DNA of 64,000 nucleotides from sequence record PZ026127.1; one strand, 5' to 3'. The DNA is from a phage. A program made the position numbers and the translations under genes. The notes under the pieces were generated by a model. That model was not told the origin of the DNA. It made no database searches and saw only the letters and a program-made list of their open reading frames with translations. Shown piece by piece: positions 9,594 to 45,839 of this stretch; position 1 is the first letter of the stretch, and every line of letters starts with the position of its first letter.

Positions 9594-10052
9594 ATGATTA
9601 TGATTATCAATGCAAACTCTTGGCACGCTAAACTTCATGACCGTTTTTATGACAGTCATTCTCGACCGCACTCTTTATGTGCTTACTTCTGGAAAATGGT
9701 TTGGGCTTGTTTTGCTTGTGCTGTTGTTGCAGGTAGTACGCTTTTTGGATTAACTGTTGCAGGTGTTGGTGTATTAGAGCATTTCTTTGTATTAAGTACC
9801 CCTGTTCTGTTGAGTCTAGGGTTTGTTTTAGGATTGGTTGCAATAGCTCTTATTATTGCGCTATCCATTGGTTTGGCATTCGGTGCGATGAATTTACACG
9901 CATGGTATGATGCCCGTAGAGAAGAAAAGGAACGGCAACGTATTCAAGCTGAGCGTGAAGGCCGAGAAACTAAAGAAAACATCGTTATTCAATACATTAA
10001 AGCTCGTAAATCTAAGGTCTGTCCGGTAATCCACTTCGAGGACAAAGAATGA
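9594..10052 (+). CDS. Hypothetical membrane protein
   Basis: Two predicted hydrophobic helices; basic C-terminus. Confidence 0.45.
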   Translation: MIMIINANSWHAKLHDRFYDSHSRPHSLCAYFWKMVWACFACAVVAGSTLFGLTVAGVGVLEHFFVLSTPVLLSLGFVLGLVAIALIIALSIGLAFGAMNLHAWYDARREEKERQRIQAEREGRETKENIVIQYIKARKSKVCPVIHFEDKE

Positions 10053-11059
10053 GAACAGTTATGAAAGGCTACTTCGGTAGCCACCTTTATGGAACAAGTA
10101 CTCCAGAATCTGATGTTGATTTTAAAGAAATCTTTGTTCCACATCCGCGTGATATTCTGTTAGGTACGGCTATGAACCATACCAACCTGAATACGAATAA
10201 CACAGCTTCTAAAAACACTAAAGATGATGTTGACCACGAGCTTTACAGCCTGAAATATTTCTTTAAACTGGCTGCTGATGGCGAAACCGTTGCTCTGGAT
10301 ATGCTCCACACTCCACCTGAAATGGTGGTTAAATCTGATTTACCTGATGTATGGAAATTTATCCAAGACAATCGTTCTCGGTTCTATACGACTAACATGA
10401 AAGCCTATTTAGGGTACGTCCGTAAGCAAGCTTCTAAATATGGTGTTAAGGGTTCTCGACTAGCTGCACTGCGTGGTGTACTGGCTATTGTTAACCAGAT
10501 TCCTGAACAGTGGGTTGACTATCAAGAAGGAATCCCTGATAGACTTCGTCGTACTAAGGTAGAAGATATCAAACACAGACTCCCTGAAAATGAGTTCTGT
10601 GAATGGGTATTCCATAACCATGAGAAAACAGGCCCTCAAACGTTCTATACTGTTCTAGGACGTAAGTACCAAACTACTTTGTCTTTAATCGAGCTCAAGC
10701 AATCTCTGAATAAGCTTGATGCTGAATATGGCGAACGTGCTCGTAAGGCTGAAGCTAATGAAGGTATCGATTGGAAAGCTCTGAGCCATGCTTATCGTGC
10801 CGGTTATCAGTTGAAGGAAATCTATATGACCGGCGATCTCAAATATCCTTTACGTACAGCACCGTTTATCCTTGAAATCAAACAAGGGCTACATGCTTTT
10901 AAAGATGTGCAGGCTGAACTTGAAGCTATTGTAGATGAAGTCGAAACTAATGCTATCTGGGCCGCTAAGAATGGTATGCCTGATAAGGTAGACATGAAAT
11001 TCTGGGACAAGTTCGTTGAAGAGGTGTACCTAGAAAACCATAACTCGTATTATAAATGA
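10049..11059 (+). CDS. Pol-beta-superfamily nucleotidyltransferase-like protein
   Basis: N-terminal GSHLYGTSTPESDVDF fits the minimal NTase motif GS-x(9-13)-D-x-D; 336 aa. Confidence 0.45.
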   Translation: MRTVMKGYFGSHLYGTSTPESDVDFKEIFVPHPRDILLGTAMNHTNLNTNNTASKNTKDDVDHELYSLKYFFKLAADGETVALDMLHTPPEMVVKSDLPDVWKFIQDNRSRFYTTNMKAYLGYVRKQASKYGVKGSRLAALRGVLAIVNQIPEQWVDYQEGIPDRLRRTKVEDIKHRLPENEFCEWVFHNHEKTGPQTFYTVLGRKYQTTLSLIELKQSLNKLDAEYGERARKAEANEGIDWKALSHAYRAGYQLKEIYMTGDLKYPLRTAPFILEIKQGLHAFKDVQAELEAIVDEVETNAIWAAKNGMPDKVDMKFWDKFVEEVYLENHNSYYK

Positions 11060-11060
11060 T

Positions 11061-11082
11061 AAAAGGCCTTCGGGCCTTTTTT
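11061..11082 (+). terminator. Rho-independent terminator (UUCG tetraloop)
   Basis: AAAGGCC-TTCG-GGCCTTTTTT. Confidence 0.65.
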
Positions 11083-11101
11083 GGGTTTAGTGCAAAAAAG
11101 A

Positions 11102-11150
11102 GTTTACACTCTCGTAGAGCATGTTATTATGGACCTATCAAATCTACTGA
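11102..11150 (+). promoter_or_regulatory. Early promoter cassette (PeSL variant)
   Basis: GTTTAC 11102-11107; TATTAT -10-like; GGACCTATCAA conserved box. Confidence 0.45.
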
Positions 11151-11167
11151 GTGAAATGGAGAATATA

Positions 11168-12148
11168 ATGTTAACTATCAAAATCAACAAAGGTGTCTAT
11201 CGCGGTAATGAAATCTCTGGTACGTTCATGAGTTCAGGTAAAACCTGGTTCCCTAATAAAATTCATGAATCTGAAGCTCACCTCGGTGATGGTAAGGTAT
11301 TCGTACAGATTGATGGTGTTGAACGTGGTGTATGGGTATTCAAATCTGATATCGAAACCGAAGGTGCTGAAGCTCCTGTAGTGGTTACCGAATCTTCTGA
11401 AGAAATGAAACACCGCATCAACAAACGTTTTAAAGTAATGAACATGATGACTAATGGAATCATCGATGGTAAAATTCGTTCCCTTATCATCTCTGGTGCC
11501 GCAGGTATTGGTAAAACATATTCTTTGGATAAAGCATTACAGAATGCCCACGAAAATGAAACTATCGAATATAAATCAATCAACGGAAAGATTAGTGGAA
11601 TCGGTCTTTACGAGCAGCTTTGGAATAACCGCGGCCCTAATAGTGTTCTTCTTATTGATGATGTTGATGTATTCTCTGATATGGATATCCTGAACCTGTT
11701 AAAAGCAGCATTGGATACCGGTGAAAAACGTAAGGTGTGCTGGAGCACTTCAAGTTCTTACCTCGATGATAAAAATATCGATAAAGAATTCGAATACGAA
11801 GGCACCATCGTGTTCATCACCAACGTTGATATCGACCGTGAATTAGAGCGCGGAACTAAACTTGCTCCACACCTCCAGGCTTTAGTATCTCGTTCAGTTT
11901 ACTTAGACCTCGGAGTTCACTCTAACGAAGAGATTATGGTCCGTGTTGAAGACGTTATCCTGTCCACTGATATGATGCAAAACCGTGGTCTGACTGATGC
12001 CGAGACTTATCAAGCACTGTCCTGGATGAAGGCTAATGTATCTCGTCTTCGTAACGTATCATTACGTACAGCTCTTTATCTGGCGGACTTCATTGCCACC
12101 GATAAAAATGACTGGAGCGAAATCGCTGAAGTTACACTTCTGAAATAA
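11168..12148 (+). CDS. AAA-type ATPase, unknown function
   Basis: Walker A GAAGIGKT, Walker B LLIDDVD; start set at ATG 11168 downstream of GGAG (ATG 11156 is an alternative). Confidence 0.5.
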   Translation: MLTIKINKGVYRGNEISGTFMSSGKTWFPNKIHESEAHLGDGKVFVQIDGVERGVWVFKSDIETEGAEAPVVVTESSEEMKHRINKRFKVMNMMTNGIIDGKIRSLIISGAAGIGKTYSLDKALQNAHENETIEYKSINGKISGIGLYEQLWNNRGPNSVLLIDDVDVFSDMDILNLLKAALDTGEKRKVCWSTSSSYLDDKNIDKEFEYEGTIVFITNVDIDRELERGTKLAPHLQALVSRSVYLDLGVHSNEEIMVRVEDVILSTDMMQNRGLTDAETYQALSWMKANVSRLRNVSLRTALYLADFIATDKNDWSEIAEVTLLK

Positions 12149-30751: not shown

Positions 30752-33463
30752 ATGCAAGAATTCTATTTGACAGTCGAACAAATCGGTGATAATATTCTCG
30801 AACGTTACATCGATAAAAATGGTAACGAACGTAGTCGTGAAGTTCCATACAAGCCTACAATGTTTATGCATGCTAATCCAGAGCAAGCCGTAAAATACAT
30901 TGATATCTATGGTAAGGGTTGTGTTAAGAAAGAATTCGATTCTATGCGTGATGCATCCCAATGGATGAAACGTATGGATGATATGGGTCTCGAAGCCCTG
31001 GGTATGGACGACTATAAATTAGCCTATTTGTCTGATACCTATCGTAAAGAAATCAAATATGATTCTTCTAAGATTCGTATTGCTAACTTCGACATCGAGG
31101 TAACATCTCCTGATGGATTCCCTGAACCAGCTCAGGCTAAACATCCTATCGATGCCATTACCCACTACGACTCGATTGACGATAAATTCTATGTATTCGA
31201 CCTTTTAGTTTCGCCTTATGGTACTGTTGAAGAGTGGTCGATTAAAATCGCTGAGAAACTCCAAGACGAAGGTGGTGACGAAGTTCCACAGGAAATCATT
31301 GACAAAATCGTTTATCTTCCGTTTAATTCTGAAGAAGAAATGATGCTTGAGTACTTGAATTTCTGGCAACAGAAAACTCCTGTGATTTTGACTGGATGGA
31401 ACGTTGAGTCGTTTGACGTACCGTACGTTTATAACCGTCTGAAAAATCTGTTCGGTGAGAACACTGCTAAGCGATTAAGCCCACATCGTAAAACTCGTGT
31501 TAAAGTTATTGAGAACATGTACGGTGCTCGTGAAATCATTACATTGTTCGGTATCTCTGTTCTGGATTATATCGACCTCTATAAAAAATTCAGCTTCACC
31601 AACCAGCCTTCTTATTCTCTGGATTATGTTTCTGAATATGAATTGAAAGTAGGTAAGTTGAAATATGATGGTCCAATCTCCAAGTTACGTGAGACGAACC
31701 ACCAACGATATATTTCCTATAATATTATCGACGTATATCGTGTAGTGCAGATTGATATGAAACGCCAGTTCATTCTTCTGAGTTTGGACATGGGTTATTA
31801 TGCCAAGATGCAGATTCAGTCGGTGTTCAGTCCAATTAAGACTTGGGACGCTATTATCTTTAATAGCCTTAAAGAGCAAGGCAAGGTAATTCCACAAGCT
31901 CGTTCACACGTGGTCCAACCTTATCCTGGTGCTTTCGTTAAGGAACCGATTCCTAACGCTTACAAATATGTAATGAGTTTCGACCTTACATCTCTGTATC
32001 CGAGTATCATTCGACAAGTGAATATAAGCCCAGAGACCATCGCAGGGACATTCGCTAACGCACCGATACATGAATATATTGCCGGAACAGCTCCGCGTCC
32101 TAGCGACACCTACAGTTGCTCTCCTAACGGCATGATGTATTATAAAGACCGTGAAGGTGTGATTCCGACAGAAATCACAAAGGTATTCTTGCAGCGTAAA
32201 GAACATAAAGGTTACATGCTTGCAGCTCAGCGTAATGGTGAGTTAATTAAAGAAGCATTGGAAAATCCTAATCTCTCGGTTGATAGTCCACTGGATATCG
32301 ATTATCGTTTTGACTTCTCTGACGAAATCAAAGCCCAGATTAAAGCACTGTCAGCGCCTTCTTTAAGAGAAATGTTGAAGAAAGCCGAGCTCACTGAAGT
32401 TGCAGGTAACACGGCTCAGATTAACCGTAAGTTGCTTATCAACTCCCTTTATGGTGCACTTGGTAACGTATGGTTCCGTTACTATGACCTCAGGAACGCA
32501 ACTGCAATCACATTGTTTGGTCAAATGGCCCTCCAATGGATTGAACGTAAGGTTAACGAATATCTGAATAGCGTGTGTAAGACTGAAAATCAGAAGTTCG
32601 TGCTCTATGGTGATACTGACTCCATTTATGTTAAGGCCGATGCAATCATCAATAAAGTAGGCGAAGATAAATTTCGTGACACTAACCACTGGGTCGACTT
32701 CTTAGATAAATTTGCACGTGAACGTATGGAACCAGCTATTGATGCAGGCTTCCGTGAGATGTGCGAATACATGAACAACAAACAACACTTGATGTTCATG
32801 GACCGAGAAGCTATCGCAGGTCCTCCACTTGGTTCTAAAGGTCTTGGTGGATTCTGGACAGGCAAGAAACGTTATGCACTGAACGTTTGGGACATGGAAG
32901 GTACTCGTTATGCCGAACCGCACTTGAAAATCATGGGTCTCGAAACTCAGAAATCAAGTACACCTAAAGCAGTTCAGAAAGCTCTGAAGGAATGTATCCG
33001 TCGTATGCTTCAGGAAGGCGAGGCATCTTTGCAAGAATATTTCAAACAGTTTAATAAGGAATTTAACGAACTCGATTATGTAAGCATTGCAGCAGTATCC
33101 AGTGCTAACAACATCGAGAAATATAATGAAGGTGGATTCCCGGGTTCTAAATGTCCATACCACATCAAAGGTTGCTTAGCTTACATGCGTGCTTCTGCAG
33201 GTGATTTGACTATGCCTCGTATCGTTGATGGTGAAAAGGTATATGTACTGCCACTTAAAGAAGGCAACCCGTTTGGTGAAGCTTGTATGGCATGGCCGTC
33301 AGGTATTGAACTTCCGGTTCAGATTCGTGACCAAGTCCTCCGTTGGATGGACTACAACGTACTGTTCCAAAAGACCTTTATCAAACCTCTGACCGGTTTT
33401 ACTGAGTCTGCTAAAATCGACTACGAGAAAAAAGCAACATTATTTGATATGTTCGACTTTTAA
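30752..33463 (+). CDS. 43: DNA polymerase gp43 (family B)
   Basis: 903 aa; N-terminus matches T4 gp43 (EFYxxxExxGxNIxERYID); exonuclease FDIEV; polymerase motifs SLYPSII, KxLxNSLYG, YGDTDS. Confidence 0.95.
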   Translation: MQEFYLTVEQIGDNILERYIDKNGNERSREVPYKPTMFMHANPEQAVKYIDIYGKGCVKKEFDSMRDASQWMKRMDDMGLEALGMDDYKLAYLSDTYRKEIKYDSSKIRIANFDIEVTSPDGFPEPAQAKHPIDAITHYDSIDDKFYVFDLLVSPYGTVEEWSIKIAEKLQDEGGDEVPQEIIDKIVYLPFNSEEEMMLEYLNFWQQKTPVILTGWNVESFDVPYVYNRLKNLFGENTAKRLSPHRKTRVKVIENMYGAREIITLFGISVLDYIDLYKKFSFTNQPSYSLDYVSEYELKVGKLKYDGPISKLRETNHQRYISYNIIDVYRVVQIDMKRQFILLSLDMGYYAKMQIQSVFSPIKTWDAIIFNSLKEQGKVIPQARSHVVQPYPGAFVKEPIPNAYKYVMSFDLTSLYPSIIRQVNISPETIAGTFANAPIHEYIAGTAPRPSDTYSCSPNGMMYYKDREGVIPTEITKVFLQRKEHKGYMLAAQRNGELIKEALENPNLSVDSPLDIDYRFDFSDEIKAQIKALSAPSLREMLKKAELTEVAGNTAQINRKLLINSLYGALGNVWFRYYDLRNATAITLFGQMALQWIERKVNEYLNSVCKTENQKFVLYGDTDSIYVKADAIINKVGEDKFRDTNHWVDFLDKFARERMEPAIDAGFREMCEYMNNKQHLMFMDREAIAGPPLGSKGLGGFWTGKKRYALNVWDMEGTRYAEPHLKIMGLETQKSSTPKAVQKALKECIRRMLQEGEASLQEYFKQFNKEFNELDYVSIAAVSSANNIEKYNEGGFPGSKCPYHIKGCLAYMRASAGDLTMPRIVDGEKVYVLPLKEGNPFGEACMAWPSGIELPVQIRDQVLRWMDYNVLFQKTFIKPLTGFTESAKIDYEKKATLFDMFDF

Positions 33464-33465
33464 GT

Positions 33466-33520
33466 GTTTACATACCACAAGGAACGTGGTAGTATCCTTC
33501 CTATCAACTACATGAGGAAA
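33466..33520 (+). promoter_or_regulatory. Early promoter cassette (PeSL variant)
   Basis: GTTTAC 33466-33471; TAGTAT; CCTTCCTATCAAC box; ATG 33526. Confidence 0.45.
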
Positions 33521-33525
33521 TTACA

Positions 33526-33762
33526 ATGGAAGCTTTAATCGTTAGTGCTGGTGTTTTAGGATTCGGTTCTCTGGTTATTATGTTCATCGGTTACTTTTTA
33601 CCATGGATTCTGGCTCTTCTGCGAGGCACTCGTAGTAATGTCGGAATTTTCTTCCTTAATCTCCTGTTAGGCTGGACGATGATTGGTTGGGTAGTGGCTT
33701 TAATCTGGGCTATCGTCGCTGAACGTAAATCAAACGCACAAATCATTATTGTTAAGCAATGA
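33526..33762 (+). CDS. Small two-helix membrane protein (Imm-like, positional)
   Basis: 78 aa, two hydrophobic helices, GW...ALIWA motif; occupies the T4 imm position after gene 43. Confidence 0.45.
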   Translation: MEALIVSAGVLGFGSLVIMFIGYFLPWILALLRGTRSNVGIFFLNLLLGWTMIGWVVALIWAIVAERKSNAQIIIVKQ

Positions 33763-33896
33763 AAATAATTATTTTATTTCTTATAATGACTGCCTTTACC
33801 ATTTATTGGGCAGTGGCAATTCCGCCAATGATTCCGACACTCATCATTGGATGGATTATTCTTATAGCACAAATTAAGTATAACTGTTTTAATTGA
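33759..33896 (+). CDS. Small hydrophobic membrane peptide
   Basis: 45-aa ORF, ATGA overlap; below track cutoff. Confidence 0.25.
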   Translation: MKIIILFLIMTAFTIYWAVAIPPMIPTLIIGWIILIAQIKYNCFN

Positions 33897-33903
33897 GGAT
33901 ATT

Positions 33904-34404
33904 ATGAAAAAGTTAATTATCGCAATGAGTATGCTCCTATCAGGTTGCGCGGTCCAATATGGTGATACAGTTTCGGCCGATGAAGTTGGTAAAGCTCGTA
34001 TCGCAGCTGAACAGAAACAATTCGATGGCGAAATGAAATTCCGTGCAGGTTCTGGACTTGTGTACACCCGAGCTAATAATCAATGCGGTAATAACTGTGC
34101 AAAATATGCTCAACAAGAAATCGAATTCCAACGTGAACAAGAGTCCAAGCGTGAAGCGGTACTAGCCAAACACCAGGCAGAAATGAAGCGTCAAGATGAT
34201 TTGTACAAAAAGCAGAAACTGTATGCGATGTGCGTAAACCATATCAATCTACAGATTTCCATCCACGAGGCTCGTTATTACGAAATGCTCGAAACCGAGA
34301 GCTTCGGTAAAGCTCGTGATTATAAGAAACAAATCGATAAGCTCAAGACCAAAGCACCGGCGGCAATAGAACAGTGTATTGAAATCGGTAAAGATAAGAT
34401 TTAA
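33904..34404 (+). CDS. Putative lipoprotein
   Basis: Signal peptide with lipobox LLSGC; coiled-coil-like remainder. Confidence 0.5.
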   Translation: MKKLIIAMSMLLSGCAVQYGDTVSADEVGKARIAAEQKQFDGEMKFRAGSGLVYTRANNQCGNNCAKYAQQEIEFQREQESKREAVLAKHQAEMKRQDDLYKKQKLYAMCVNHINLQISIHEARYYEMLETESFGKARDYKKQIDKLKTKAPAAIEQCIEIGKDKI

Positions 34405-34464
34405 GCAATACCAATTTATTAAAAATAGTGTATAATGTACCTACATTCACTTGAGGAACAGATA

Positions 34465-36138
34465 ATGAAAAAGGTTGTTATTTTAGGCGCGGGTCTTGGC
34501 TCACGGTTGTATCCAATTACCAACGAAATCCCGAAGGTACTGGTTAACTACAAACAACATACTGTATTAAAACATTTGTATGATTTGTATAGTAATCAAT
34601 CAGATGAAATTATTCTGGTTATTCACAGCAAATTTAACGACCTCGTTAAAGGCTATATTAAATCCATTAACATGATTAATAGTGATAAGCCTAAATTCAC
34701 TATTCGTAACGTTGATGTTGCCAATGGTTCGGCTCATGCTATCGATTGCATTGCCGAAGATATCATTGGGCACAATGTCTTGTTTAACTGGTGTGATATT
34801 ATTCCTGAAGGTCATAAAGTTGAGTGGGATAACGACTACTGTTATACCTATGGGACTGACTGTCGTTTTACATTTGAAGAACCGTACTTGCGTGAAATTG
34901 GTACCGGTGGTGGCGTAGTTGGCTTGTATCAGGTGGCTAATTGGACAGGTTTCGACCGTTCTAATTATGGTGAAGACCTTGCTGACAACCTGGATTCAAT
35001 GGTCCATTTGACTGAACGTAAGTTAGACTTTGTAGTTGATGTTGGTGACAAACTGAAACTGGCTAAGGCCCATGAAGATTCTGAAATTAACCGTGAATTT
35101 AATAAATTAGAGTTCACTGAGAATCTAGCTATTAAAGTACCTACAAACGAATTAGGTAAAGAAATCCAATCTAAAGAAATCAATTGGTACAATTCTATTG
35201 ATTCTGAATTCGTTCCTAGCATTGTAGACTTTGCTCCAGGTGAATTCATTAAAATGGAACGTATCTTTGGTCGAACCATGGCAGATGCCTACCGGTTTAT
35301 GTCTAAAGAAACTAAAGTCCTAATGGTTTATAAGGTTATTAGTGCATTACGTTCGTTCGGTGGAACTATCGATAATCCATCTGATGAGCAATGGTATTCT
35401 GATGTTAAGAAAGAAGTATTGGACAAGGTCCTTATTCGTAATGCTTCTATCGCCGGATTGATTGAAGGCTTTGCTCCACAGGGCATTACCCATGTTAACG
35501 ACTTTAAGGTAGGCGACCCTGAAAAACTTCTTCGCCATGCACTAGAAATTCTGTCTGAACATAAAGAACCGTACCAACTTATTCATGGCGACCCGCACTA
35601 CAGTAATATTATGTTGTCGGACGAAGGTGATATTAAAATCATCGACCCACGTGGTTATTTTGGTAATAGTTCTAAAGGCCCTGCGATTTATGATGAAGCT
35701 AAGGTGCTTTATTCTATCGATGGTTATGACAAATTTAACTCTGACCCTCTATGGGGTGGCTTAACTCGTAACGGAACTCGTGTATTCGTTGATATTGAAA
35801 AGGTTATGCCTTTAGATGATATTCCAATGTGTACATTTAAGCACAAGCTCTGGATTGCTGTTATCTGGATGGCATTGGCAGGTTACTTTAAAAATAACCC
35901 TCTGAAAGCTCTGGGTGCTTATTACAACGGTTTGTACCAACTGAGTGTGCTGCTGAAGCGACATCCTCGTAAGCGTAAGCTTATCACAGGTGAATTCGTT
36001 GATGAAGTTCGCGACCCTATCACGGCTCAAATTATCACTCGTTGTCCTGATAAGTGGGTTTTGCTTGACCAAGAAACTGGTGTAAAATATAAACCTACAG
36101 GTTCTACTGAACTCCACAAACAATGGAAGAAAATTTAA
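34465..36138 (+). CDS. Bifunctional sugar-1-phosphate nucleotidyltransferase / APH-family (anomeric sugar) kinase
   Basis: N-terminal KVVILGAGLGSRLYPIT...PKVLV matches the RmlA/GlmU-type NTase signature; C-terminal IHGDPHYSNIML (Brenner HGDxxxxN) and IIDPRG typical of APH/choline-kinase-like kinases. Confidence 0.6.
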   Translation: MKKVVILGAGLGSRLYPITNEIPKVLVNYKQHTVLKHLYDLYSNQSDEIILVIHSKFNDLVKGYIKSINMINSDKPKFTIRNVDVANGSAHAIDCIAEDIIGHNVLFNWCDIIPEGHKVEWDNDYCYTYGTDCRFTFEEPYLREIGTGGGVVGLYQVANWTGFDRSNYGEDLADNLDSMVHLTERKLDFVVDVGDKLKLAKAHEDSEINREFNKLEFTENLAIKVPTNELGKEIQSKEINWYNSIDSEFVPSIVDFAPGEFIKMERIFGRTMADAYRFMSKETKVLMVYKVISALRSFGGTIDNPSDEQWYSDVKKEVLDKVLIRNASIAGLIEGFAPQGITHVNDFKVGDPEKLLRHALEILSEHKEPYQLIHGDPHYSNIMLSDEGDIKIIDPRGYFGNSSKGPAIYDEAKVLYSIDGYDKFNSDPLWGGLTRNGTRVFVDIEKVMPLDDIPMCTFKHKLWIAVIWMALAGYFKNNPLKALGAYYNGLYQLSVLLKRHPRKRKLITGEFVDEVRDPITAQIITRCPDKWVLLDQETGVKYKPTGSTELHKQWKKI

Positions 36139-36521
36139 TGTCACATCGAGTAGAAAATAAGCCTCATTTATGTTTTGACATCGATAACACAATCACGATT
36201 TGGAACCATGACCGTGATTATGAAAACTTTAAACCGGACACCGAAATGGTGTCCATGATTAATAAGCTTTATGATGAAGGATGCGAGATTACCTTGTTCA
36301 CTGCCCGTGGTATGACTTCATGCGGTCCAGGTCGAATCTTGGTTGAAGTAGTTCCTGCATTGGTTAAGAATCTTGAAAAGATTGGATTGAAATATCATAA
36401 TCTGCTTACACATAAGCCGAGTTATACTTTTATCATCGATGACCGAGCAATCCGTCCTGACCACTTTAAAGAAATGGTTCGTGAAGGAACTCTTGAAACC
36501 TATAAGGCATATCATCCGTGA
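36138..36521 (+). CDS. HAD-superfamily phosphatase
   Basis: Motif I FDIDNTIT (DxDxT), motif II LFTARG, motif IV IIDDR; TAATG overlap with upstream gene. Confidence 0.6.
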   Translation: MSHRVENKPHLCFDIDNTITIWNHDRDYENFKPDTEMVSMINKLYDEGCEITLFTARGMTSCGPGRILVEVVPALVKNLEKIGLKYHNLLTHKPSYTFIIDDRAIRPDHFKEMVREGTLETYKAYHP

Positions 36522-37054
36522 AACCAAAAATCATTGTTATCGACGGCCCGGATAATTCCGGGAAGTCTACTTTAATTGAATCGCTTTTATCTGATAAGAA
36601 ATATCGTCTTATCGATTTCCCTAAAAAGATTAATGGTAAGTGCATTTCGATAGGGACTGATAATGACAAGGCTTTAGTCGAGACGTTGTATAAGTTTTTA
36701 GACCCTAATTTTGTCTACATCTTAGACCGTGGATATCCTAGTAATATTGTTTACTCAGGATTCCTTCGTGGTGAAATGGACCCCTATGTAGAACTGGAAG
36801 ATTGGAAAGGGTTTAAATCTGAATTCAATATTATTGAGGTTATTTTAACCCGTAATCCACTGGATAAAGACTTTGAAGATGACCTTATTAAATTAACCAA
36901 AGATGAGTTCAACCTAACTATCCGGCAATATGAAACATGTTTTGAAAACGTGTTTAAAATCTTAAATCACGACGGCCATAATAACTTGCTTAACGTCGAT
37001 ATGGTAGAATTAAAACGTCTGAATGAATATATTGAAAATAAGGTGAATAAATGA
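36518..37054 (+). CDS. P-loop kinase (thymidylate/dNMP kinase-like)
   Basis: IIVIDGPDNSGKSTL Walker A at N-terminus, DRGYPS; 178 aa. Confidence 0.5.
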   Translation: MKPKIIVIDGPDNSGKSTLIESLLSDKKYRLIDFPKKINGKCISIGTDNDKALVETLYKFLDPNFVYILDRGYPSNIVYSGFLRGEMDPYVELEDWKGFKSEFNIIEVILTRNPLDKDFEDDLIKLTKDEFNLTIRQYETCFENVFKILNHDGHNNLLNVDMVELKRLNEYIENKVNK

Positions 37055-37749
37055 AACACATTACCGCTGTTAGTTTTGAAAACGCGTTTAAGCAAATGAA
37101 CGAAGAAATCCTGGAAGCTCCACAGTTTGCAGTTGATTCTCGTATCGGCCGTTGTTATGAAATTGGTTCTGCTTCGGTAGAAGTACTGGATGCAAGCACC
37201 TATAAATTCACCGACCCTCGTATTAATCGTATCAACTATGATTATGCCGAATCTTTCTGGAAGTTTATGATTTCTGGTGGTACTGACGCCGCCGAAGCAT
37301 TTAAGGAATACCCTAATGTTGCTAAGTTCATTGATAAGCCGAAAAGTGACGTATTGCCTGCAAACTTCAACACTTTCTATGGACCTAGAATTGTGGCCCA
37401 ACTCCCAGCCTTACTTAAAGAGCTTAAAGAGAAGCCTAACTCAAGACGAGTTGTGTTCCAAATTCTCCAAGAACAAGACCAAGCCCTCCTTGATTCTGAC
37501 GAATCCTTAGAATATCCATGTACCGATTCGGTGACATATTATATTCGTGATGGACGTCTGTATGCACACACTCATATGCGTTCACAGAACTGTGCTATTG
37601 TTATGCAGCTGGATTTCTATCTGCAGGGTAAACTGATGGCCTTTATTGCTGAACAGTGTGGTGTTGGTCTGGGTACGTATTCCCATACTATGGTTAGTGC
37701 ACACGTATTTGAACGTGATTTTGACTACGTTCGAGGATTCCTGAAATGA
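37051..37749 (+). CDS. 42: dCMP hydroxymethylase (thymidylate synthase fold)
   Basis: RRVVFQI, catalytic Cys in EYPCTDS, MRSQN...LDF with Asp at the pyrimidine-discriminating position as in T4 gp42; T4 position. Confidence 0.75.
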   Translation: MKHITAVSFENAFKQMNEEILEAPQFAVDSRIGRCYEIGSASVEVLDASTYKFTDPRINRINYDYAESFWKFMISGGTDAAEAFKEYPNVAKFIDKPKSDVLPANFNTFYGPRIVAQLPALLKELKEKPNSRRVVFQILQEQDQALLDSDESLEYPCTDSVTYYIRDGRLYAHTHMRSQNCAIVMQLDFYLQGKLMAFIAEQCGVGLGTYSHTMVSAHVFERDFDYVRGFLK

Positions 37750-38639
37750 GTTTGTTTATCGTTCCTATTTTCAGTATGCGTAGTTACGAAACAGGTGAAT
37801 ATGCCGTCCTTAAGGACGGCAATTTTCAACTCCATTTAAACCGTGCTTGCCCAGGTGATTATCTGGCTTATCCTAGAAATTCGAGCGATATCAAAGAATG
37901 CATTGAATTATTTCCTGAACTGAATTTTGTACCTCTTTGGTATAAAGAAAATGCTTATGAAACTCGTAAACATTTTTGGTCTGAAAATGAGTTCGTTGTT
38001 GATTCGTTAATCGAATACTATGACTGCTCAGGATTGGTAACCGATATCACAGGTTATGATGGTGCTCATACCGTACAATTCAACTTTAACATTACAATGG
38101 ACCCTGAAGTTCCTCGTTATTACATCGATGAGTTTATTGATACCGACGTGGGTTCAGTTGAACGTTCGATTTATACTACAGTCTTGAATCAATGTCAGAA
38201 AGACGTCCTGGTGTCACGAGGTGCGTCCTCTGATAAGATTTTTGTAGACCAAAAGGTAATTAATCCTGCAGTAATTGAGCGTTACTCTGAAGGTCTAGCG
38301 CCTATTAAAATTGATGGTATTTTCCATCCATTCCGTATTTCAGATAAATGCTACCAATTCGAAAGAGTTGTAGACCAGGCTGCGGCTGAGGGTTCTCGTC
38401 TTTACATCACCGACCCGAATGATTCATTTAAGCGTGAAGACTATCGTCCTGATGTAGAGATTATTAAATTCAAACCGAGTAAGGTTGAATATTATCAGAT
38501 TCTGAAATCAAGACCTCATATCATTTATCATGAGAATCCCGGTTTAGTATTCCATCCTGGTCTGGCTGAATTCATTTATTTCGGTGCCCACATCCATTCT
38601 GAGCACGAAATGCCAAGTTATGAGGACGTGGTCCTTTAA
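37746..38639 (+). CDS. Orphan protein in beta-glucosyltransferase slot (candidate DNA glycosyltransferase)
   Basis: 297 aa between 42 and uvsX, where T4 has beta-gt; no resemblance to T4 alpha- or beta-gt that I can recognise. Confidence 0.3.
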   Translation: MSLFIVPIFSMRSYETGEYAVLKDGNFQLHLNRACPGDYLAYPRNSSDIKECIELFPELNFVPLWYKENAYETRKHFWSENEFVVDSLIEYYDCSGLVTDITGYDGAHTVQFNFNITMDPEVPRYYIDEFIDTDVGSVERSIYTTVLNQCQKDVLVSRGASSDKIFVDQKVINPAVIERYSEGLAPIKIDGIFHPFRISDKCYQFERVVDQAAAEGSRLYITDPNDSFKREDYRPDVEIIKFKPSKVEYYQILKSRPHIIYHENPGLVFHPGLAEFIYFGAHIHSEHEMPSYEDVVL

Positions 38640-38716
38640 CGCTGTAAATGTGAAGTGATATAATTACCCTATCTTAAAACGTGAGTAAAATATAATGATG
38701 CCTATGGAAAAATATA

Positions 38717-45320: not shown

Positions 45321-45839
45321 ATGGCATACTTTAACGAATGCGCAAACCTGATTGATGGTGTTGATAAAGCTGAGGAAGCTTATTTTAATGCTCTGATTCA
45401 TGAAGATAAAGACCCTCTGCAAGTTATGCTTGATATGCAGAAATCTTTACAGGTTCGTTTGGCTAATGACCGTGAATATTGTTACCATCCGGACAAATTA
45501 GCGACAGCCGGTGATGTTGTTGCTTGGATGCGTGAACAGAAAGATTGTATTGACGATGAATTCCGTGAACTTCTGACTTCCCTCGGTGAAATGTCTAAAG
45601 GTGAGAAAGATGCATCTGCTGTATGGAAAAAATGGAAAGCCCGTTACCCGGAAGCACAAGCCAAACCTATTTCAGAAATGTCTCCTGAAGACCAGCTTGA
45701 AATTAAATTTGAACTCATTGATATTATGCACTTCGTATTCAATATGGCTATTGGCCTGAATATGTCGGCTGAAGAAATGTTTAAACTTTATTATCTGAAG
45801 AATGCTGAAAACTTTGCAAGGCAGGACCGTGGCTATTAA
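45321..45839 (+). CDS. 56: dCTP pyrophosphatase gp56
   Basis: 172 aa; very strong match to T4 gp56 (MAxFNECA, LQVMLDMQ, CYHPDKL, WMREQKDCIDDEFRELLTSLGEM, KWKARY, YYLKNxENFARQDRGY). Confidence 0.93.
   Translation: MAYFNECANLIDGVDKAEEAYFNALIHEDKDPLQVMLDMQKSLQVRLANDREYCYHPDKLATAGDVVAWMREQKDCIDDEFRELLTSLGEMSKGEKDASAVWKKWKARYPEAQAKPISEMSPEDQLEIKFELIDIMHFVFNMAIGLNMSAEEMFKLYYLKNAENFARQDRGY

Follow-up and report, generated by a model that had tools for sequence, protein, structure and literature searches.

A fused nucleotidyltransferase-kinase gene in Dhakavirus encodes a probable AfhE-type enzyme of cytosine arabinosylation

Sequence record PZ026127.1 was analysed over a stretch of 64,000 nucleotides (nt) of phage DNA, hereafter the window, in which one uninterrupted gene of 557 codons (34465-36138, + strand) encodes a nucleotidyltransferase fused to a kinase between the DNA polymerase and uvsX genes of a T4-like phage. 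What is the function of such an enzyme at this position? A sequence-only reading of the locus had been right about the domains and about the kind of chemistry, while its biological context, sugar salvage, was wrong, as the evidence points to DNA hypermodification. The window corresponds to a Dhakavirus, a JS98/QL01-like T-even phage, with a 5.4-kb region displaying 96-98% identity to Escherichia and Salmonella Dhakavirus phages (QL01, WG01, Bp7, JS98). With the integration of domain, structure, family and gene-context analyses, we propose that the gene product is probably a bifunctional enzyme of AfhE type, serving the phage pathway to arabinosyl-5-hydroxycytosine DNA. The family is not a new discovery, as it was described in 2018 (PMC6024577) and has been characterised since; the fresh point concerns the Dhakavirus cluster, which is minimal, and its sugar-activation genes, which are mosaic.

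Gene start, domains and catalytic residues

A mechanical search for open reading frames (ORFs) opened the frame at 34435, yielding 567 residues; this start was rejected, as its ATG falls within a TATAAT hexamer (34431-34436, preceded by TG), has no ribosome-binding site and is unused in the annotations of relatives. The translation-start region (34431-34464, +) also contains a Shine-Dalgarno sequence, GAGGA, at 34453-34457, separated by 7 nt from the ATG at 34465, which is the start annotated in close relatives. Based on this spacing and on those annotations, the start, end and length (557 residues) given by the sequence-only reading were right, and the strings that it quoted were all located in this single continuous ORF, namely MKKVVILGAGLGSRLYPITNEIPKVLVNY..., ...LIHGDPHYSNIMLSD... 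and ...IKIIDPRGYFG.... The TATAAT match is consensus-level only, with 17 promoter-like matches in the region versus 17.5 expected from shuffles; a promoter and terminator scan of the modification cluster performed no better than on shuffled sequence, and we make no claim on its regulation past the Shine-Dalgarno sequence.

Two domains were identified by Pfam, both over the gathering score: NTP_transferase (residues 13-110 of the 567-residue ORF, E 2.5e-8) and APH (residues 356-427, E 1.3e-5). The protein also matched PHROG 4098, a group named as of 'unknown function', over its entire length (E 3.5e-269). Its N-terminal half carries the GxGxRLxPxT...PK signature and acidic metal ligands, with G10, R14, P23, K24, D111, D192 and D195 invariant in a 37-sequence alignment; the C-terminal half of the same polypeptide harbors the ATP-binding Lys/Glu pair, the HGD catalytic loop, an Asn and the metal-binding Asp, with K224, E238, H374-G375-D376, N381 and D394 equally invariant. 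An AlphaFold2 model from this alignment reached a predicted local distance difference test (pLDDT) value of 92.2 and a predicted template modelling (pTM) score of 0.88. The product is a sugar nucleotidyltransferase and an APH/choline-kinase-like kinase on one chain, with its catalytic residues intact. The two-domain architecture proposed from the letters alone is supported by all these lines of evidence, and neither the Pfam search nor the alignment revealed a spurious or catalytically dead domain.

The nucleotidyltransferase domain (residues 1 to ~205; 34465-35079, +) is predicted to act as a UDP-arabinofuranose pyrophosphorylase, and the kinase domain (residues ~206-505; 35080-35979, +) as a D-arabinose-5-phosphate 1-kinase. 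They are followed by a C-terminal tail of ~50 residues (~506-557), which together with the stop codon spans 35980-36138 (+); its motif, KWxLxDxETG...Y...W (alignment columns 690-761), is conserved in T4-like family members only and is missing from the distant clade of the alignment, and in the model the tail forms short strands with pLDDT 70-87. Structure comparison of the model placed MurU among the best matches, and the structural matches of the window protein are those reported for RB69 gp52:53 (4y7t, 1jyk and a glucosamine kinase; PMC13326640). By sequence, the best matches in the PDB were HddC (E 2.8e-4) and LicC, covering the N-terminal ~90 residues only, and no solved AfhE structure was found in this search.

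Family, gene cluster and proposed pathway

The fusion protein is 100% identical to a deposited cluster whose named member, KIT01_044, is annotated as a hypothetical protein. Full-length homologues were detected by tblastn in 368 phage records, with identities to the window protein of 99-100% in Dhakaviruses, 80% in Klebsiella phages (Marfavirus), 72% in one Providencia phage, 42-47% in Mosigvirus, Serratia, Acinetobacter, Yersinia, Enterobacter and Erwinia phages, and 24-28% in jumbo phages of Sphingomonas, Vibrio, Tenacibaculum and Chryseobacterium. These comparisons indicate a widespread and conserved phage family, within which the Dhakavirus protein forms a separate subclade with those of the Klebsiella and Providencia phages. 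The fusion had been considered unusual in a T4-like replication module; given this number of records, and that the polymerase-uvsX interval is a conserved cytosine-hypermodification locus of many Straboviridae, this view was not sustained.

For assignment to the AfhE family, the window protein was compared with the homologues of Bas46, Serratia phage 92A1 and Acinetobacter phage Maestro, HY126 AfhE being reached through the literature, where it corresponds to RB69 ORF53_52c/gp52:53, Bas46_0146 and DLP3 gp82. Identity was 43% to the RB69-type Bas46_0146 over the full length (tblastn E 1.8e-129), and 47% and 43% to the proteins of 92A1 and Maestro, respectively, at 100% coverage, with E values across the three homologues ranging from 2e-163 to 6e-125. 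The Dhakavirus protein resembles the AfhE group in its two-domain architecture (557 vs 561 residues), in its location between polymerase and uvsX, and in its partners, which include a HAD phosphatase, a Tmk-like kinase, a homologue of the 5-hydroxy-dCMP synthase and a glycosyltransferase. Agreement with this family was found in every sequence, structure and context feature tested except the phage-borne isomerase, which is absent from many of its members and may not be obligatory.

The fused form was recognized by Thomas et al. (2018), who showed that the short RB69 ORFs 053c and 052c constitute one 561-residue protein, listed the Dhakavirus IME08 as a carrier of the fused form, and suggested that the protein acts in UDP-arabinose synthesis (PMC6024577). 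Lee et al. (2026) demonstrated arabinosylated 5-hydroxycytosine in RB69 and DLP3 DNA, a modification also present in the DNA of Bas46, 92A1 and Maestro, and showed that a ThyA homologue makes 5-hydroxy-dCMP; in addition, RB69 gp52:53 and DLP3 gp82 were equated with AfhE, and the Dhakaviruses were listed among the genera with a syntenic cluster (PMC13326640). As described in that work, which cites He et al. (2026) and Mahler et al. and on whose description the AfhE/AfhF mechanism given here rests, HY126 AfhE acts on arabinose-5-phosphate, and the HAD protein AfhF dephosphorylates arabinose-1,5-bisphosphate between the two steps of AfhE. Further, propagation of Shewanella phage Thanatos requires the homologue TH1_060 (PMC12838424), which shares 44% identity with the window protein.

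The genes of the window are arranged in the order DNA polymerase (30752-33463), imm, a lipoprotein-like ORF, fusion gene, HAD phosphatase, Tmk-like kinase, ThyA homologue, PHROG 3891 protein and uvsX. The fusion gene and the HAD gene share 16 nt, and the last four genes of the cluster are joined by 4-nt start/stop overlaps. A corresponding gene set lies from polymerase to uvsX in Bas46 (Mosigvirus), 92A1 and Klebsiella phage VAC36; in each relative inspected, the fusion gene was found within this interval and translationally linked to nucleotide-modifying genes.

Extrapolating from the characterised homologues, the kinase domain would use ATP to phosphorylate D-arabinose-5-phosphate at C1. The 5-phosphate of the resulting arabinose-1,5-bisphosphate would then be removed by the AfhF-like HAD-superfamily phosphatase of the next gene (36123-36521, +), a role taken from PMC13326640. 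This protein carries a DIDNT motif, matches PHROG 1238 (E 2.8e-42), HAD-IIIA and, under the cut-off, the NCBIfam capsule-biosynthesis phosphatase TIGR01689 (E 5e-14; 52.3 vs 162 bits), and is 64% identical to a 'putative phosphatase' of Bas46. PHROG 1238 bears the name 'phosphoheptose isomerase', which has spread into RefSeq phage annotations; for the 36123-36521 product this name is wrong, given its DxDxT phosphatase motif and lack of an isomerase domain. The nucleotidyltransferase domain would subsequently join arabinofuranose-1-phosphate and UTP to form UDP-arabinofuranose, from which a glycosyltransferase encoded downstream would transfer arabinose onto 5-hydroxycytosine in phage DNA. The candidate for this last step is a putative DNA arabinosyltransferase of 297 residues (37746-38639, +), a homologue of RB69 gp46:47 and Bas46_0141 (67% identity to the latter) that matches PHROG 3891 (E 7.9e-159) and no Pfam family, and is the only such transferase found in the genus.

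The modified base would be supplied by two further genes. A thymidylate-synthase homologue at the T4 gene 42 position (37051-37749, +; Pfam Thymidylat_synt, E 4.8e-14), 79% identical to its Bas46 homologue, is the putative 5-hydroxy-dCMP synthase, and the enzyme encoded at the equivalent site of the RB69 cluster, gp48, has been shown experimentally to make 5-hydroxy-dCMP (5hodCMP; PMC13326640). The thymidylate-kinase-like P-loop nucleotide kinase (36518-37054, +; PHROG 761, E 3.1e-39), which is 37% identical to the putative thymidylate kinase of Bas46 and 76% to that of Marfavirus, is predicted to phosphorylate this nucleotide. A gp56-type dCTPase gene (45321-45839, +; Pfam dUTPase_2, E 3.3e-5), whose QL01 counterpart is annotated as 'gp56 dCTPase', would supply dCMP and remove dCTP, which supports complete cytosine replacement. 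The complete Dhakavirus genome of QL01 has dCTPase, denA, denB and alc and no glucosyltransferase, a combination typical of phages in which all cytosine is replaced.

The organization of these steps resembles that of the nucleotide-heptose pathways, in which a SIS isomerase (GmhA), an anomeric kinase (HldE/HddA), a HAD phosphatase (GmhB) and a nucleotidyltransferase (HldE/HddC) convert a sugar omega-phosphate to the 1,omega-bisphosphate, remove the distal phosphate and form the nucleoside diphosphate (NDP)-sugar. Like the phage protein, HldE is a kinase-nucleotidyltransferase fusion, and by sequence the N-terminal domain finds its best PDB match in HddC; however, HldE combines a ribokinase-fold kinase with a cytidylyltransferase-fold transferase, which points to an independent origin of the phage fusion, and the heptose pathways act on a heptose and deliver their product to lipopolysaccharide or capsule, not to DNA. 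A SIS isomerase gene lies directly upstream of the fusion homologue in Bas46 and 92A1, and likewise upstream of a very distant homologue (32% identity) on a 315-kb contig. Moreover, three metagenomic proteins of 922-946 residues (P0068, P0077, P0092) unite HAD, SIS, nucleotidyltransferase and kinase domains on a single polypeptide; such a 'Rosetta-stone' fusion links the four activities to a common pathway. These four-domain proteins are very rich in AT and in N, and have a sulfotransferase gene as neighbour (L009 14-2854).

The comparison with AmgK/MurU, and similarly with LicA/LicC, is valid for the folds, an APH/choline-kinase-like kinase and a minimal RmlA-like nucleotidyltransferase, and for the sequence of phosphorylation and then nucleotidylation. 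These are, in contrast, separate proteins acting on free N-acetylmuramic acid (MurNAc) or choline for recycling or surface decoration, and the sequence similarity of the fusion protein to MurU is marginal (23.9 bits versus 370). The two-step NDP-sugar synthesis foreseen by the sequence-only reading was therefore retained in part: its phosphoryl and nucleotidyl steps and the structural match to MurU agree with the proposed pathway, in which, unlike AmgK/MurU, a phosphatase would intervene, the reported substrate is a sugar 5-phosphate and the product would be placed on DNA. Salvage of AmgK/MurU type was in turn not supported, as the pathway would feed a DNA glycosyltransferase and the kinase substrate of the homologue is described as arabinose-5-phosphate rather than the free sugar (PMC13326640).

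Minimal cluster and mosaic inheritance

The Dhakavirus cluster differs from those of the AfhE group in the absence of the arabinose-5-phosphate isomerase, the U32-peptidase-like (U32-like) gene and the second arabinosyltransferase, in the position of the Tmk-like gene directly after the HAD gene rather than at the cluster end, and in the 43-47% identity of a fusion protein that forms its own subclade. The region 33400-38700 was compared with Bas46, 92A1, VAC36 and the whole QL01 genome, and searches for the isomerase, the U32-like protein and RB69 gp3, the second arabinosyltransferase, returned no homologue in either the window or QL01. A second glycosyltransferase was also sought among the other large ORFs of the window and none was found; these ORFs encode proteins of RlaP-like, AAA/STAND-like, DUF7235 and Metallophos type. 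Phage records with the isomerase number 270, against 368 with the fusion, so ~100 genomes, the Dhakaviruses and the Klebsiella phages among them, lack it. With no phage isomerase in the genus, arabinose-5-phosphate would have to come from host KdsD or GutQ, and with one transferase only, the predicted product is mono-arabinosylated 5-hydroxycytosine; host dependence together with a mono-arabinosylated product constitutes the simplest reading.

The mosaic structure was revealed by comparing 34465-37054 of the window with the VAC36 (Marfavirus) segment 7001-9678 and with Bas46 (Mosigvirus). The DNA polymerase (83% identity to Bas46, 68% to VAC36) and UvsX (90% and 88%) are closer to Bas46, whereas the fusion protein (43% and 80%), the HAD phosphatase (64% and 85%) and the Tmk-like kinase (37% and 76%) are closer to VAC36, which suggests that the sugar-activation block may have been exchanged between phage lineages. 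The fusion protein displays 17 subclade-specific substitutions; they are conservative, and 8 of them (including G12, S13, V85 and G150) correspond to the majority residue of the distant clade, one sampled member of which (P0071) is SIS-linked. These substitutions were rejected as positive evidence of a changed substrate specificity, since they are conservative and about half are shared with a distant clade that has an isomerase-linked member.

Several other ORFs of the window were recorded. Between imm and the modification cluster, a 166-residue ORF (33904-34404, +) with a lipoprotein signal (MKKLIIAMSMLLSGC) matches PHROG 1754 and is absent from the Bas46, 92A1 and VAC36 loci; its product may be a superinfection-exclusion lipoprotein. 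A 45-residue hydrophobic ORF (33759-33896, +) is 57% identical to Bas46_0147, which in Bas46 is located between the isomerase and the fusion gene, and its product is a tiny membrane protein that seems to accompany the modification cluster. In the nrdC region (10049-12148, +), an ORF for an RlaP-like nucleotidyltransferase (RNA-repair, pol-beta family) adjoins one for an AAA/STAND-like NTPase with a C-terminal helix-turn-helix.

Alternative routes and sugars

Several observations weigh against an AfhE-type role in arabinosylation. Our literature search found no enzyme assay or DNA analysis for any Dhakavirus, and the identity of the fusion protein to homologues from phages with proven arabinosylation is only 43-47%, versus 64-79% for the neighbouring genes and higher values for core genes (polymerase 83%, UvsX 90%). 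The direct comparison is limited to the Bas46, 92A1 and Maestro proteins, and the isomerase and U32-like gene of the characterised systems are missing from the window and the QL01 genome. Furthermore, when purified TH1_060 was supplied with xylose-1-phosphate and NTPs, no product formed (PMC12838424), thus specificity cannot be assumed across the family.

The main competing explanation, and the closest to the AmgK/MurU analogy, is a free-sugar route of AmgK/MurU or NahK type, in which the HAD protein would first release arabinose and the kinase would phosphorylate the free sugar at C1 before the NDP-sugar is formed. This order is still listed in Table 1 of Lee et al. (PMC13326640), while the text of the same work, as far as its description of the HY126 enzymes goes, has AfhE acting on arabinose-5-phosphate and AfhF on the 1,5-bisphosphate. 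The best named relatives of the HAD protein are also bisphosphate-type and capsule phosphatases (a GmhB-like match is given in PMC13326640), and the order isomerase, kinase, phosphatase and transferase parallels the established heptose pathways; we thus regard the free-sugar order as unlikely. Somewhat less likely still is that the isomerase-less Dhakavirus/Marfavirus subclade activates another host sugar phosphate, such as a ribose or xylose derivative, to yield another glycosyl-5-hydroxycytosine. The sugar of the Thanatos modification, reported as a deoxypentose and not arabinose (PMC12838424), would fit this explanation. So would the absence of the phage isomerase and U32-like gene, the substitutions N378H and F379Y in the catalytic loop right after the catalytic Asp, and the divergence of the fusion (43%) and Tmk-like (37%) proteins from the characterised Mosigvirus versions, far greater than in the rest of the cluster. 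On the other hand, E. coli and Klebsiella themselves make arabinose-5-phosphate for Kdo synthesis, the subclade substitutions are few and, as described above, conservative and in part shared with a clade that has a SIS-linked member, and the transferase and the 5-hydroxy-dCMP synthase share 67-79% identity with their counterparts in a phage whose arabinosylation is proven.

A third reading takes the gene for a GlmU/RmlA-like auxiliary metabolic gene that would work on sugar precursors of the host envelope or capsule and have nothing to do with DNA; it is very improbable and already largely refuted. Its basis is the annotation 'bifunctional protein GlmU' or 'capsular polysaccharide' in several phage records, along with weak resemblance to the NCBIfam models for GlmU, GalU and capsule phosphatase. 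The fusion protein lies below every curated NCBIfam cut-off by an order of magnitude, with matches covering the first ~130 residues only (glmU, 21.8 vs 366.85 bits; rmlA_long, 21.8 vs 320.25; MurU, 23.9 vs the equivalog cut-off of 370), and in all relatives inspected its gene is translationally linked to nucleotide-modifying genes. It has no acetyltransferase domain, its C-terminal half being a kinase. Membership in GlmU, RmlA or MurU was rejected on these grounds, including the RmlA/GlmU-like affiliation suggested from the sequence alone, and the label 'GlmU', which some phage records carry, is a misannotation. An AfhE-type enzyme acting on arabinose-5-phosphate is the reading that we prefer. 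That the Dhakavirus/Marfavirus genes constitute a distinct, streamlined five-gene module, whose diverged fusion and Tmk-like genes passed as one unit between phage lineages of E. coli and Klebsiella and which is either entirely dependent on host arabinose-5-phosphate or activates a different sugar, is an idea to which we assign a small probability; if a different sugar were activated, the mono-glycosyl-5-hydroxycytosine would have a chemistry so far determined in no member of the genus.

The fusion protein would take part in the replacement of cytosine by a sugar-coated base, through which many T4-like phages block restriction enzymes and CRISPR nucleases, with relevance for phage therapy, phage engineering and the enzymatic synthesis of NDP-pentoses. 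A protein recorded as 'hypothetical protein' in Dhakavirus entries and as 'GlmU' in other phages can now be named with confidence. Finally, the minimal cluster predicts one arabinose per cytosine and a need for the isomerase of the host Kdo pathway; both predictions are testable, and both bear on the defence systems evaded by Dhakaviruses, which are therapeutic-candidate phages.

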